DNA of 64,000 nt from an uncultured Actinomycetes bacterium (GTDB lineage: Bacteria; Actinomycetota; Thermoleophilia; Gaiellales; Gaiellaceae), in the NCBI GenBank assembly GCA_963733855.1, contig CAVTEL010000011.1, forward strand, positions 31,691 to 95,690, written 5' to 3'. This document shows, piece after piece, positions 20,738 through 21,984 of the stretch. The notes under the pieces are model-generated. The model worked only from the letters and a program-made list of their open reading frames with translations, ran no database searches and had not been told where the DNA came from. Position numbers and translations under genes: made by a program. The stretch's first letter is position 1. Each line of letters opens with the position of its first letter.

Positions 20738-21984
20738 GTGACGTACATCATCGCCGAGCCCTGCATCGACATCAAAGACCTCTCCTGCGTGGACGTGTGC
20801 CCGGTCGACTGCATCCACGAGTTCGAGCGGATCCTGATCATCGACCCCGAGGAGTGCATCGACTGCTTCGCCCCGACGGAGCGGTTCGTGACCTCGAAGG
20901 GCATCCGGACCTTCGCCGAGCTCGAGAACGAAGCCGTGCGAGTCCTGACCGACGACGGCTTCAAGCCCGCGCTCGTGAAGCGGTTTCGCCGGAAGCCGCT
21001 CGTGAAGCTCGAGCTGGCGCCGGCGTTCGAGGAGCGCGACCGCTACGGCGGGACGCGGCTGACGACCCGCAACATCTCGAGGTTCCGCCGGACGATCTGG
21101 GCGACGCCGACGCATTCGTGGCTCCTCGCGGACGGCGAGCGAACCGATTCGCTCGAGGCAGGCCAGTTCGTTCCGTCGATGCGCGCTCAGCCCCGTCGCG
21201 AGGGCGAGACCTATCGCCTCGGCGTCCTCCACGGGCTCGTGTTCGGCGACGGAAGCTGGAACAAGCAGGAGATCCGTTCGAGCGAGCACCTCCACTACGT
21301 CCAGCTCTACGGCGAGCGCGTGGCGAAGTTCCGCGACTTCTTCGACCAGGTCAACTTCTCGCCGTGCCTCGACGTGCATCCCGGATACGTCGGAACCGGC
21401 GTCGTGCGCTCTTCGGCGAATCTCAAGCGACTCTTGCCCGAGACGGCCGACACCGAGTACATCACCGGCTTCGTCGACGGCTGGATCGCCGCGGACGGCG
21501 ATCCCGTCAAGGCCGGATCCTGGCGCCTCCGCTCGACCGACCACGAGGCGCTTGCCTGGCTCGAGCAGGCAGCGGTGATCGCCGGATACGTCGCGGTCGG
21601 CTCCGGCGAAGAAGCAAGCCGCGAGACGAATTTCGGCGTCCGCAGCCGCCCCATCCGCTGGCTCTACCTCGCGACCCGGAGGTCTCCTGGCGGGTGATGA
21701 ACGTGGAGGAGAACGAGGCTGACGCAGAGGACACCTACTGCGCCGTCGTTCCCGGAAAGCACGCGTTCACGCTTGCCGGCGGCGTCTACACCAAGAATTG
21801 CGGTGCGTGCGAACCGGAGTGCCCGGTCGAGGCGATCTTCCCCGAGGATGCGCTCCCCGATAAGTGGGAGCCGTTCGTCAAGATCAACTACGCCTACGGC
21901 GAAGGCGCCGACGTGGTCAACAACCTCACCAACGAGTACGCCACCGAGCACAACGTGCAGAACCCTCCGCTCGACGAGCGTTAG
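20738..21984 (+). CDS. fdxA: 7Fe ferredoxin FdxA interrupted by an intein
   Basis: N-extein [42 protein letters not shown] and C-extein [26 protein letters not shown].. together form a colinear FdxA. One frame break lies inside the insert near 21670. Confidence 0.85.
20864..21798 (+). mobile_element. class-1 intein with LAGLIDADG homing endonuclease domain
   Basis: Cys1/block A CFAPTERFVTSKGIRTFAEL; block B ATPTHSWLL; LAGLIDADG motifs LGVLHGLVFGDGSW and GFVDGWIAADGD; block F DTYCAVVPGKHAFTL; block G GGVYTKN followed by Cys+1. Confidence 0.8.

Follow-up and report, generated by a model that had tools for sequence, protein, structure and literature searches.

The window analysed here is a stretch of 64,000 nucleotides from a Gaiellaceae assembly (GCA_963733855.1, contig CAVTEL010000011.1, positions 31,691–95,690 of the forward strand), and all positions given below are those of the window. 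On its + strand lies a gene that, with one base put back, reads as a single ORF from a GTG start codon at 20738 to a TAG stop codon at 21982–21984. The product is a precursor of 415 amino acids, of which 398 are identical to those of the relative P0001. From its sequence the locus is very probably one gene, in which an FdxA-type 7Fe ferredoxin of 103 residues is split by an intein of 312 residues, with splicing predicted and the frameshift most likely an artefact. No second intein, no other intact CxxCxxCxxxCP motif, no Rfam match and no tRNA were found in the window.

The N-extein, representing ferredoxin residues 1–42, occupies 20738..20863 (+) and aligns to residues 1–41 of Mycobacterium smegmatis FdxA (2v2k). 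It contains Cys9, Cys17, Cys21-Pro22 and Cys40, all of which are kept in 75/75 intein-containing alleles, with Cys40 being residue −3 relative to the splice junction. The C-extein, ferredoxin residues 43–103, occupies 21799..21984 (+) and begins with Cys+1 (codon TGC, 21799–21801); the alignment to 2v2k continues through it without a gap. Its Cys+1, Cys+4 and Cys+8-Pro, also on the + strand, are likewise conserved in 75/75 of the intein-containing alleles. The intein runs between the two exteins from Cys1 to Asn312 at 20864..21798 (+), a span of 935 nt in the window whose identification is supported by homology, an AF2 model and Foldseek. This span and the resumption of the ferredoxin at 21799 had been given in an earlier note made from the sequence, and both proved exact.

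Joining the two exteins restores the ligand pattern Cx7Cx3CP...CxxCxxCxxxCP. The joined protein matched solved 7Fe ferredoxins, with M. smegmatis FdxA (2v2k) at 3e-29 aligned without a gap across the junction, as the earlier note had proposed should be checked, and with further matches to 1bc6, 1h98 and Azotobacter vinelandii FdI. It is 94–97% identical to contiguous ferredoxins of 101–103 amino acids in Gaiellaceae. The label FdxA given to the gene previously is sound at the family level and does not extend to the equivalog level, with the NCBIfam model FdxA_Actino scoring 111.9 bits against a cut-off of 125 and covering profile positions 1–79 of 107; the score lies under the cut-off because the C-terminal tail diverges. 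Cys+1 is the second Cys of the CxxCxxCxxxCP motif, in agreement with the suggestion that it is a cluster ligand, and we take it to be equivalent to Cys42 of A. vinelandii FdI. All cluster ligands are conserved in the 75 intein-containing alleles. The ligand pattern is that of FdxA proteins such as M. smegmatis 2v2k and A. vinelandii FdI, from which the gene described here differs in being split by an intein.

The intein spans 935 nt rather than a full 312 codons because one base is missing, and the first reading frame ends at a TGA codon at 21695–21697. The site of the frameshift was located to 21677..21679 (+), the codon for Arg272 of the intein (Arg314 of the precursor), whose third base is gone. 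Alignment with the closest relative, L001, opened just one gap over the length of the gene. It falls at 21679, with ACC CG- GAG in the window facing AGC CGT GAG in L001. A one-nucleotide correction near 21670 had been proposed earlier; a single base is indeed missing, and this alignment places the gap at 21679, close to the proposed position. Relatives carry CGN at this codon and 77 of them are in frame. The missing base most likely reflects an error of sequencing or assembly and not a pseudogene, because the assembly is rich in indels and five neighbouring genes are frame-switched as well. The genes for AhpC, DsbD, glyoxalase, FAD_binding_2 and a radical-SAM protein in the window all switch frame relative to reference proteins taken from assemblies other than this one, and 42 gap openings, nearly all of a single base, were counted over 13 kb of the window against L001.

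It is very unlikely that the frameshift is genuine and that the gene is a pseudogene here, perhaps decaying, with another ferredoxin doing the work. The window sequence as given does contain the stop at 21695–21697, and the frame is also broken in three of the 81 related loci. However, only one base is gone, the remainder is 94–96% identical to the intact alleles with all catalytic residues kept, and simultaneous breakage of five conserved neighbouring genes is biologically not credible. The three other frameshifted alleles break at differing positions and all come from MFD MAGs with very large contigs, which were taken as long-read assemblies. Programmed frameshifting was also considered and was rejected, as none of the 77 relatives has the shift and the remaining broken alleles lose their frame at other positions.

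The features of an intein can be followed along the insert. Block A (CFAPTERFVTSKG) is located at 20864..20902 (+) with the Cys1 codon TGC at 20864–20866, and the N-terminal lobe of the Hint domain (residues ~1–111) extends over approximately 20864..21196 (+), as indicated by the AF2 model, Foldseek and profile matches to mini-inteins. Within this lobe the block B core TPTHSW, at 21104..21121 (+), contains Thr81 (B:7), His84 (B:10) and Trp86 (B:12), invariant in 43/43 sequences of alignment A1 and in 75/75 alleles. The C-terminal lobe (residues ~263–312, approximately 21650..21798, +) was assigned by the same three lines of evidence. It contains block F (TYCAVVPGKHAFTL) at 21733..21774 (+), in which Cys293 at F:4 (codon 21739–21741) is invariant (43/43 and 75/75), and block G (GGVYTKN) at 21778..21798 (+), with Thr310 at G:5, the penultimate Lys311 and the terminal Asn312 (codon AAT, 21796–21798, +). 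Every motif quoted in the earlier note was found in the sequence.

Full-length homologues of the insert were detected with a best E-value of 1e-201, and 986 representative proteins matched at E ≤ 1e-3. Among 86 distant relatives, Cys1 is present in 86/86, the C-terminal Asn in 84/86 and a Cys, Ser or Thr at +1 in 86/86. Cys1 and the block B Thr-x-x-His are found in 43/43 sequences of alignment A1 and in 75/75 alleles, and the terminal Asn and Cys+1 in 75/75 alleles. The invariant columns (C1, T81, H84, D129, K188, D211, N312 and C+1) are the catalytic positions of inteins and of LAGLIDADG endonucleases. The AF2 model of the intein (pLDDT 94.3, pTM 0.91) is all-beta up to residue 105, and in a Foldseek search against the PDB it matched PI-SceI (8e-10), PI-PfuI (4e-8), PI-PkoII, I-DmoI (3.5e-4) and many mini-inteins, including DnaE, DnaB, RecA and gp41-1. 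Profiles built from the family matched almost exclusively inteins in the PDB, such as Pho CDC21-1 (1e-6) and Ssp DnaB, and a profile of the Hint portion only matched the same two inteins at 1.2e-6 and 2.4e-4, respectively. The AF2 model, Foldseek and the Hint-only profile thus all indicate a Hint fold, and the insertion is in frame with joined flanks that are colinear with ferredoxin.

General-purpose models were far less sensitive. A stock Pfam scan of the insert gave Intein_splicing at only E = 0.056–0.14, the NCBIfam models for intein N-terminal and C-terminal regions gave no match, the NCBIfam RtcB intein model covered 45 residues only (1.8e-4), and a search of the PDB with the insert as a single sequence returned no relevant match. 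The earlier note had held that the lack of any Hint or intein profile match would speak against an intein; this was nearly the outcome with stock HMMs and was overturned by the family-specific profile and the structure search.

It is vanishingly unlikely that the insert is a non-splicing domain or a cleavage-only BIL-like Hint domain, or that an unrelated ORF lies between two independent genes for the halves of the ferredoxin, a reading to which the failure of stock HMMs to call the Hint domain does lend something. The ORF is continuous in 77 relatives, which argues against the separate genes that had been raised earlier as a possible objection. BIL domains lack a +1 nucleophile and cleave instead of splicing (PMC7664689), whereas here the terminal Asn and the +1 nucleophile are conserved and an endonuclease domain is present. 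A cluster motif with four-residue spacing could not function when split around 312 residues, and purifying selection persists on the exteins and on the ligands. The insert is confirmed, by sequence and modelled structure, as a genuine LAGLIDADG-type intein, with splicing itself being predicted. The central claim of the earlier note, that such an intein sits within the CxxCxxCxxxCP motif of a 7Fe ferredoxin, is borne out by homology, fold, extein colinearity and intein-free alleles, all of which agree.

The LAGLIDADG endonuclease domain (residues ~112–262) was placed at approximately 21197..21649 (+) from the AF2 model, Foldseek and dN/dS. The first motif, LGVLHGLVFGDGSW at 21218..21259 (+), contains LVFGDGSW with Asp129 (codon 21248–21250), and the second, ITGFVDGWIAADGD at 21461..21502 (+), contains WIAADGD with Asp211 (codon 21494–21496); both acidic residues are invariant. 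Between them, Lys188 (21425..21427, +) within LKRLLP is invariant in alignment A1 and present in 74/75 alleles. The modelled endonuclease fold consists of two alpha-beta-beta-alpha-beta-beta-alpha halves, and Foldseek matches to this part included I-DmoI (3.5e-4), I-SceI and the endonuclease domains of PI-SceI and PI-PfuI. The Pfam LAGLIDADG families gave no match to the window intein at a limit of E = 1; LAGLIDADG_3 matched only the first intein of the relative P0121 (4e-4). Values of dN/dS were 0.13 for the endonuclease (intein residues 109–268), 0.17 for the whole intein and 0.18 for the exteins, which indicates purifying selection.

Going by the conserved residues, the intein would fold once the precursor has been translated, and Cys1, with the help of Thr81 and His84 of block B, would convert the Asp42–Cys1 peptide bond into a thioester. 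The N-extein would then be transferred to Cys+1, cyclisation of Asn312 would free the intein and an S-to-N shift would rebuild a contiguous cluster motif. Only after splicing would the four [4Fe-4S] ligands share one short loop, and it is a reasonable inference that cluster assembly would depend on splicing, as had been suggested from the position of the insert.

A penultimate His normally aids Asn cyclisation. This common but non-obligatory residue is replaced here by Lys311, which the earlier note had reported as a departure from the usual pattern. The Lys is there, and it is hardly noteworthy, as the position is freely variable among the 75 alleles (Gly in 22, Arg in 21, Ser in 11, Lys in 7, His in 7, Ala in 5, Gln in 1 and Leu in 1). 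Inteins without a penultimate His are still able to splice (PMC7664689).

The same note had described all class 1 landmarks as being present. They are, but the description is incomplete, as Cys at F:4, Trp at B:12 and Thr at G:5 form the 'WCT' triplet of class 3 inteins, a signature defined in PMC2807308 and PMC3196547. Trp86 and Cys293 are found in 43/43 sequences of alignment A1 and 75/75 alleles, and Thr310 in 41/43 and 74/75, with the triplet occurring across the family together with Cys1. Cys293 lined up with the Asp in block F of the Ssp DnaB intein, and with Cys at F:4 in place of the usual Asp the reaction steps may not be precisely those of a canonical class 1 intein. It is, however, decidedly unlikely that splicing would follow a class 3-like route, in which Cys293 attacks the N-terminal junction first, a branched intermediate forms at block F and Cys1 is dispensable or secondary. 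Such a route would fit the invariance or near invariance of the triplet, and the class 3 DnaB inteins, although weak in Foldseek (E = 0.03–0.09), have the highest sequence identity among the Foldseek matches (20–21%). Against this, Cys1 is invariant (86/86 distant relatives and 75/75 alleles), where class 3 inteins have no nucleophile at their N-terminus; the block B Thr and His are intact, and the +1 residue is Cys, where class 3 typically has Ser or Thr. In the PDB the Hint-only profile found class 1 inteins, and none of the structures matched at E ≤ 10 belonged to class 3. Class 1 inteins that carry Cys at F:4 have been described before and are polyphyletic (PMC3196547).

Beyond the predicted splicing, a regulatory role was considered as an addition to, and compatible with, the explanation preferred here. 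It is possible, and can be put forward only tentatively by analogy with other systems, that the intein acts as a conditional switch holding the ferredoxin inactive under oxidising or iron-poor conditions. A disulfide between Cys(−3) and Cys1 or between Cys1 and Cys+1, or a metal bound by the thiols at the junctions, would hold splicing back until Fe-S clusters can be assembled. The N-terminal junction, with Cys(−3)-Ile-Asp preceding Cys1, has the spacing of the natural redox trap of Pyrococcus abyssi MoaA and of the engineered trap of Ssp DnaE (PMC3922620; PMC10663303), and six thiols surround the active site (C−3, C1, the F:4 Cys, C+1, C+4 and C+8). The intein also persists under purifying selection in at least 77 Gaiellaceae genomes, and its GC3 equals that of its host. 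However, the Cys(−3)/Cys1 spacing need not have been selected, as it follows automatically from insertion at the second Cys of CxxC, and ordinary homing dynamics suffice where all catalytic residues of the endonuclease are kept and intein-free alleles coexist. A wider proposal, that the catalytic thiols of such a switch double as Fe-S ligands or their neighbours and that the family with Cys1 and WCT is intermediate between class 1 and class 3, is considered unlikely; an intermediate of this kind has been argued not to exist (PMC7664689). If the switch were real, a disulfide or a metal held by Cys(−3) and Cys1, or by Cys1, the F:4 Cys and Cys+1, would stall splicing, and the mature 7Fe ferredoxin would be freed only when cluster assembly is possible.

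An intact ORF of 412–415 amino acids was found in 77 of the 81 related loci (one duplicating another), and every one has the junctions ECID/CF at the start of the intein and xN/CGACE at its end. The intein-containing ferredoxin allele forms its own cluster with at least 74% identity in Gaiellaceae. Other members of the family carry an intein-free ferredoxin of ~101–113 amino acids at the same syntenic locus, so that both kinds of allele which the earlier note had proposed looking for occur at one position. The order of the locus is DsbD, DUF309, a small ORF, fdx and an ORF of 111 amino acids, and, of the five loci that extend beyond this point, four continue with glyoxalase. In a tree of the flanking DNA the intein-free loci were nested among the intein-containing ones, requiring at least three changes, and the distances between inteins tracked those between flanks only moderately (Pearson 0.66, Spearman 0.31).

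The catalytic residues, the dN/dS of 0.13 and the patchy presence and absence point to an endonuclease that would cleave the intein-free allele site-specifically. The freed intein would cut intein-free fdx alleles between GAGTGCATCGAC and TGCGGNGCNTGCGA and would be copied in by repair. Such homing would account for the fact that, across Gaiellaceae, some alleles at this locus have the intein and others lack it. A recent foreign origin of the intein was set aside, its GC3 of 0.90 being the same as that of the exteins. The codons at −2 and −1 are ATC GAC in 62 of 76 intein-containing alleles and differ in three of the five intein-free lineages, numbers too small to establish synonymous 'resistance' changes at the homing site of intein-free alleles. 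In one intein-free allele (L087), the insertion site reads ATCGACCCGGAGGAGTGCATCGAC followed by TGCGGTGCGTGCGAACCGGAGTGT.

Related inteins were found at two further ferredoxin sites, each at or adjoining a ligand cysteine. It should also be noted that a protein of 744 amino acids from a single contig consists of a ferredoxin of ~120 amino acids and two inteins, and that the third-site ferredoxin intein rests on one contig. Scans of IMG/VR with P0159 and P0001 gave no relatives, and thus no direct phage source was found for the Gaiellaceae allele.

An intein with a LAGLIDADG endonuclease is a known kind of element; what is new, per the literature searched, is the 7Fe ferredoxin host and the insertion site. 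No description of an intein in a ferredoxin, in Gaiella or at this insertion site was found in that literature, and the main text of a 2016 intein survey does not mention ferredoxin. About 83% of bacterial intein hosts fall into COG categories L and F (PMC4760082). Compared with the replication, repair and nucleotide-metabolism proteins that dominate surveys, a tiny electron carrier is an unusual host. As the intein is located at a cysteine that binds the cluster, one and the same atom would serve as splicing nucleophile and as cofactor ligand. In public records the proteins are named 'hypothetical protein', 'ferredoxin' or 'dihydropyrimidine dehydrogenase PreA subunit', and routine annotation does not see the intein because stock HMMs fail to detect it. 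This is not an isolated case, as at least 77 genomes of the soil lineage Gaiellaceae carry the allele in intact form. The question of whether inteins are purely selfish or have regulatory roles as well can be approached through its clean presence or absence at a single locus, redox-gated splicing can be tested directly thanks to the Cys(−3)/Cys1 geometry, and the combination of Cys1 with the WCT signature bears on the origin of class 3 splicing chemistry.

Full-length relatives of the intein (30–44% identity) were found inside larger proteins unrelated to ferredoxin, namely class II RNR, dCTP deaminase, endolysins, a tail fibre protein and phage NrdD. The nearest in sequence are the inteins of class II (NrdJ) RNR, dCTP deaminase and phage endolysin and NrdD from metagenomes and phage records, with the metagenome proteins being 30–44% identical over their full length and the annotated phage NrdD inteins 24–27%. 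They share Cys1, TxxH-x-W, Cys at F:4 and T-x-N with the ferredoxin intein, their penultimate residue usually being Gly, and differ from it in host protein and insertion site. The class 3 inteins (mycobacteriophage Bethlehem DnaB and M. smegmatis and M. chimaera DnaBi1) have the WCT triplet in common with the ferredoxin family, but lack an N-terminal nucleophile and mostly carry Ser or Thr at +1, in contrast to the invariant Cys1 and the Cys+1 seen here. The ferredoxin family fits the rare 'WCT with Ser1/Cys1' group of Tori et al., who found Ser1 or Cys1 in three of 37 WCT inteins.

The inteins of P. abyssi MoaA and Mycobacterium tuberculosis SufB likewise reside in proteins of Fe-S biology (PMC3922620; PMC10663303; PMC8891592), and that of MoaA has the same Cys(−3)...Cys1 spacing and forms a splice-blocking disulfide. 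Neither is in a ferredoxin, and their +1 nucleophile is not described as a cluster ligand in the cited papers. Redox control has been demonstrated for these two inteins and is conjecture for that of the ferredoxin. In architecture, the closest counterparts are the top structural matches, PI-SceI (Saccharomyces cerevisiae VMA1) and PI-PfuI, which combine the same Hint and LAGLIDADG domains and have Cys1, the terminal Asn, Cys+1 and two acidic LAGLIDADG motifs in common with the ferredoxin intein. Identity to them is only 10–12%, the ferredoxin intein is 312 amino acids long against 454, and it has no penultimate His and a Cys, not Asp, at F:4. While PI-SceI and PI-PfuI are hosted by an ATPase or an RNR, the host of the Gaiellaceae intein is a ferredoxin of 103 amino acids.

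The gene opens with a GTG start at 20738, from which the N-extein (the first ferredoxin half) runs in the same frame into CFAPTERFVTSKG... as far as a TGA stop at 21695–21697. A different frame then carries ...EVSWRVMNVEENEADAEDTYCAVVPGKHAFTLAGGVYTKN followed by the ferredoxin continuation, with a TAG stop at 21982–21984. The codons for Cys1 (20864–20866), the terminal Asn of the intein, Asn312 (21796–21798), and Cys+1, the first residue of the second ferredoxin half (21799–21801), lie exactly where the earlier note had placed them, with every motif it quoted being present in the gene. 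The insert is 935 nt in length, equal to 312 codons minus one base. When joined, the exteins (103 aa) gave a gapless alignment over the junction with the FdxA of M. smegmatis (2v2k, 3e-29), which bears out the proposal of a 7Fe ferredoxin host with colinear flanks. Further alignments were obtained with A. vinelandii FdI and with two other 7Fe ferredoxins, 1bc6 from Bacillus schlegelii and 1h98 from Thermus, and the joined exteins carry the pattern Cx7Cx3CP...CxxCxxCxxxCP. The score against the NCBIfam model FdxA_Actino (111.9 bits) lies under the cut-off of 125 due to a divergent C-terminal tail. By homology, Cys+1 corresponds to Cys42 of FdI, a [4Fe-4S] ligand, and Cys(-3) to Cys39. It should also be noted that small ORFs without Pfam domains lie on both sides of the ferredoxin (20419–20724, approximately 101 aa, upstream; 22033–22368, 111 aa, MPQEAWSNKRERQYEHIKES..., downstream) and were found in every examined locus reaching that far, with the intein present or absent. 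Genes for thiol-redox functions and cytochrome c maturation (AhpC, CcmH, DsbD) are located upstream of the ferredoxin.

The suggested check of the insert against Hint and LAGLIDADG profiles gave a divided result. Stock Pfam HMMs were almost silent, with Intein_splicing found only at E = 0.056 and no match to a LAGLIDADG family, whereas a Hint-only profile built from the family matched inteins in the PDB (Pho CDC21-1, 1.2e-6; Ssp DnaB, 2.4e-4), as did nearly all matches from the profile searches of that database. An NCBIfam scan of the insert gave nothing beyond a short stretch that matched a model of the RtcB intein, and a single-sequence PDB search with the insert was empty. HMMER, run exhaustively over 1.84 billion representatives, returned 986 proteins at E ≤ 1e-3. 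Among these, full-length relatives of the intein (30–44% identity) were embedded in much larger unrelated proteins, including class II ribonucleotide reductases, dCTP deaminase, endolysins and a tail-fibre protein. In 86 such relatives the inserted segment always begins with Cys; 84 end with Asn and two with Gln, and the +1 residue is Cys in 77, Ser in six and Thr in three. More distant copies lie within annotated phage NrdD genes. In an alignment of 43 intein sequences, C1, T81, H84, W86, G124, D129, G130, K188, P192, G206, D211, G241, C293, F302, G307 and N312 were invariant, a set that takes in blocks A, B, F and G of the intein together with the acidic residues of the two LAGLIDADG motifs. 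The AlphaFold2 model made from this alignment (pLDDT 94.3, pTM 0.91) shows two alpha-beta-beta-alpha-beta-beta-alpha halves surrounded by a Hint domain that is split and rich in beta structure, and Foldseek matched it in the PDB to PI-SceI (8e-10), PI-PfuI (4e-8), PI-PkoII, I-DmoI (3.5e-4) and many mini-inteins. The homologues in unrelated hosts, the junction residues, the invariant positions and the structure are four decisive lines of evidence for the LAGLIDADG intein first proposed from the sequence; the element is of an ordinary kind, its host protein is new, and the site of insertion is of chemical interest.

The closest public relative belongs to the 'uncultured Actinomycetes' MAG MFD00962.bin.2.86 (loci L001/L002), with 94.3% identity across the gene and a sole gap of one base at 21679, where ACC CG- GAG in the window stands against AGC CGT GAG in the relative. 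This codon encodes Arg (CGN or AGR) in 74 of the 75 intact ferredoxin-intein alleles and is CAA in the other. Restoring one base yields a 415-aa product identical at 398 of 415 positions to the Gaiellaceae precursor P0001. Comparison of the window with L001, which has imperfections of its own, gave 42 gap openings in 13 kb, nearly all of a single base, and frame switches were detected within AhpC, DsbD, glyoxalase, FAD_binding_2 and the radical-SAM gene using proteins from other assemblies (L087, L082) as probes. Only three of 81 related loci (L075, L079 and L081) have frame-broken alleles, and their breaks lie at different positions. Given this indel-rich window and the few, differently placed breaks elsewhere, the frame break is very probably an assembly artefact. 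The three broken copies are all from MFD MAGs on very large contigs (GTDB), taken to be long-read assemblies, and fit an error-prone sequence context in those MAGs. The break in L075 is only about three codons from that of the window. Single-base indels are abundant across 14722–27986 (e.g., at approximately 18600, 19543–19583, 22859, 23510 and 26390), and the ORF at 22402..24141 turns to Arg-rich nonsense beyond approximately 22859; any ORF-based reading of the window requires frameshift-aware translation.

The protein database contained 1452 clusters at E ≤ 1e-3, and the best 120 of these were nearly all of 409–422 aa and 81–95% identical (two were cut at 391 and 396 aa), with the named sources being Gaiellaceae. 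GTDB species representatives yielded 98 intein-encoding stretches, and the 80 loci kept were all from Gaiellaceae, Gaiellales, Thermoleophilia or 'uncultured Actinomycetes/Actinomycetota'. In the set of 81 loci, in which L001 duplicates L002, 77 have intact ORFs (412–415 aa, one of these 395 aa), and the junctions ECID|CF...xN|CGACE are invariant in intact loci. As the earlier note had proposed looking for, intein-free alleles also exist: contiguous ferredoxins of 100–103 aa, 94–97% identical to the joined exteins, are abundant and occupy the same syntenic locus (YkuD, AhpC, CcmH, DsbD, DUF309, small ORF, fdx, 111-aa ORF, glyoxalase, HisKA_3, response regulator, radical-SAM gene), with some loci having extra genes or lacking glyoxalase. 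A rough neighbour-joining tree of approximately 1 kb of downstream flank, without support values, nested intein-free loci among intein-bearing ones, with at least three gains or losses by parsimony. Intein and flank distances are moderately correlated (Pearson 0.66, Spearman 0.31) and the GC3 of the intein equals that of its host; the intein is therefore a long-term resident with some turnover. Codons −2/−1 (20858–20863) are ATC GAC in 62 of 76 intein-containing alleles. Of five intein-free lineages (among L082–L091), three differ, with ATT GAC, ATA GAT and ATT GAT, which could reflect homing-site variation in a sample too small to judge.

Approximate dN/dS values, with dS near saturation, from the 2775 pairs of the 75 alleles were 0.17 for the whole intein, 0.13 for the endonuclease domain, 0.21 for the Hint lobes and 0.18 for the exteins. 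Cys1, the block B Thr/His/Trp, Asp129, Asp211, Cys293, Asn312 and Cys+1 are kept in all 75, as are all seven cluster ligands and both Pro, with Lys188 and Thr310 each kept in 74. Since exteins and ligands are conserved in intein-bearing alleles, functional ferredoxin is probably made from them, and splicing would hence occur. Within the one ORF (20738–21984, L002–L081), dS is about twofold higher in the intein (~1.0) than in the exteins (~0.5), possibly through stronger ferredoxin codon constraint, through homing that co-converts the flanks, or through saturation.

Two other ferredoxins carry inteins of this family, although both are singletons on short contigs and so are leads, not established facts. 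P0121 (744 aa; L085:1164-3398, Logan ERR12073466, 3.5-kb contig) is an approximately 120-aa proteobacterial-type FdxA with DUF3470 and two inteins, one beside the first CP-cysteine (TDCAS|C...HN|CCPVD) and one at the site shared with the window (ECID|C...HN|CGAC), the latter being 48% identical to the P0001 intein in alignment. P0159 (L086:1018-2250, Logan SRR20958213, 2.8-kb contig) has its intein at a third site, CGACEPE|C...MN|CPVEA. Its gene sits directly downstream of part of a DNA polymerase of phage type (phrog_17, 2e-53), a position suggesting that this ferredoxin is phage-encoded. All three insertion sites are at or beside cluster-ligand cysteines. No description of a ferredoxin intein was found in the searchable open literature, and a prior listing in InBase or in subscription papers is possible; the main text of a large 2016 intein survey does not mention ferredoxin. 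In public records these proteins are named 'hypothetical protein', 'ferredoxin' or 'dihydropyrimidine dehydrogenase PreA subunit'.

Judged by its residues, Cys1, T-x-x-H, Asn and Cys+1, the intein suits the textbook class 1 route (PMC7664689, PMC10663303), from which two features depart. The penultimate Lys remarked on earlier was confirmed and is not distinguishing, as the position varies freely among the 75 alleles (G22, R21, S11, K7, H7, A5, Q1, L1) and is usually Gly across the wider family, and it has no conserved role. Whether the host is a ferredoxin, a class II RNR, a dCTP deaminase or an endolysin, the family as a whole also carries a Trp-Cys-Thr (WCT) triplet alongside the invariant Cys1, here Trp86 (B:12, 21119–21121), Cys293 (F:4, 21739–21741) and Thr310 (G:5, 21790–21792). 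As class 3 inteins are defined by these three residues (PMC2807308, PMC3196547), a class 3-like first step is a minor rival, against which stand the invariance of Cys1 and the Hint-only profile, which retrieved class 1 and no class 3 structures from the PDB. Ser1 or Cys1 occurred in only three of 37 WCT inteins in InBase in 2009 (Tori et al., PMC2807308), and polyphyly has been reported for those class 1 inteins that have Cys at F:4 (PMC3196547). Based on Cys1, the class 1 profile matches and this known polyphyly, the intein is filed as class 1 bearing a WCT triplet.

Because the intein takes the place of the second Cys of a C-x-x-C, the N-junction of the precursor reads Cys(-3)-Ile-Asp-Cys1, a geometry that follows automatically from where the intein is inserted. 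As this pair matches known redox traps, the geometry for conditional splicing is present, with splicing control itself putative. A Cys1–Cys+1 disulfide blocks the Pab PolII intein. A Cys(-3)/Cys1 disulfide trap has been engineered in the Ssp DnaE intein and is natural to the MoaA intein of P. abyssi (PMC3922620, PMC10663303). The Cys(-3)/Cys1 pair is thus common to the ferredoxin-intein junction and to MoaA, the redox trap being documented for the latter.
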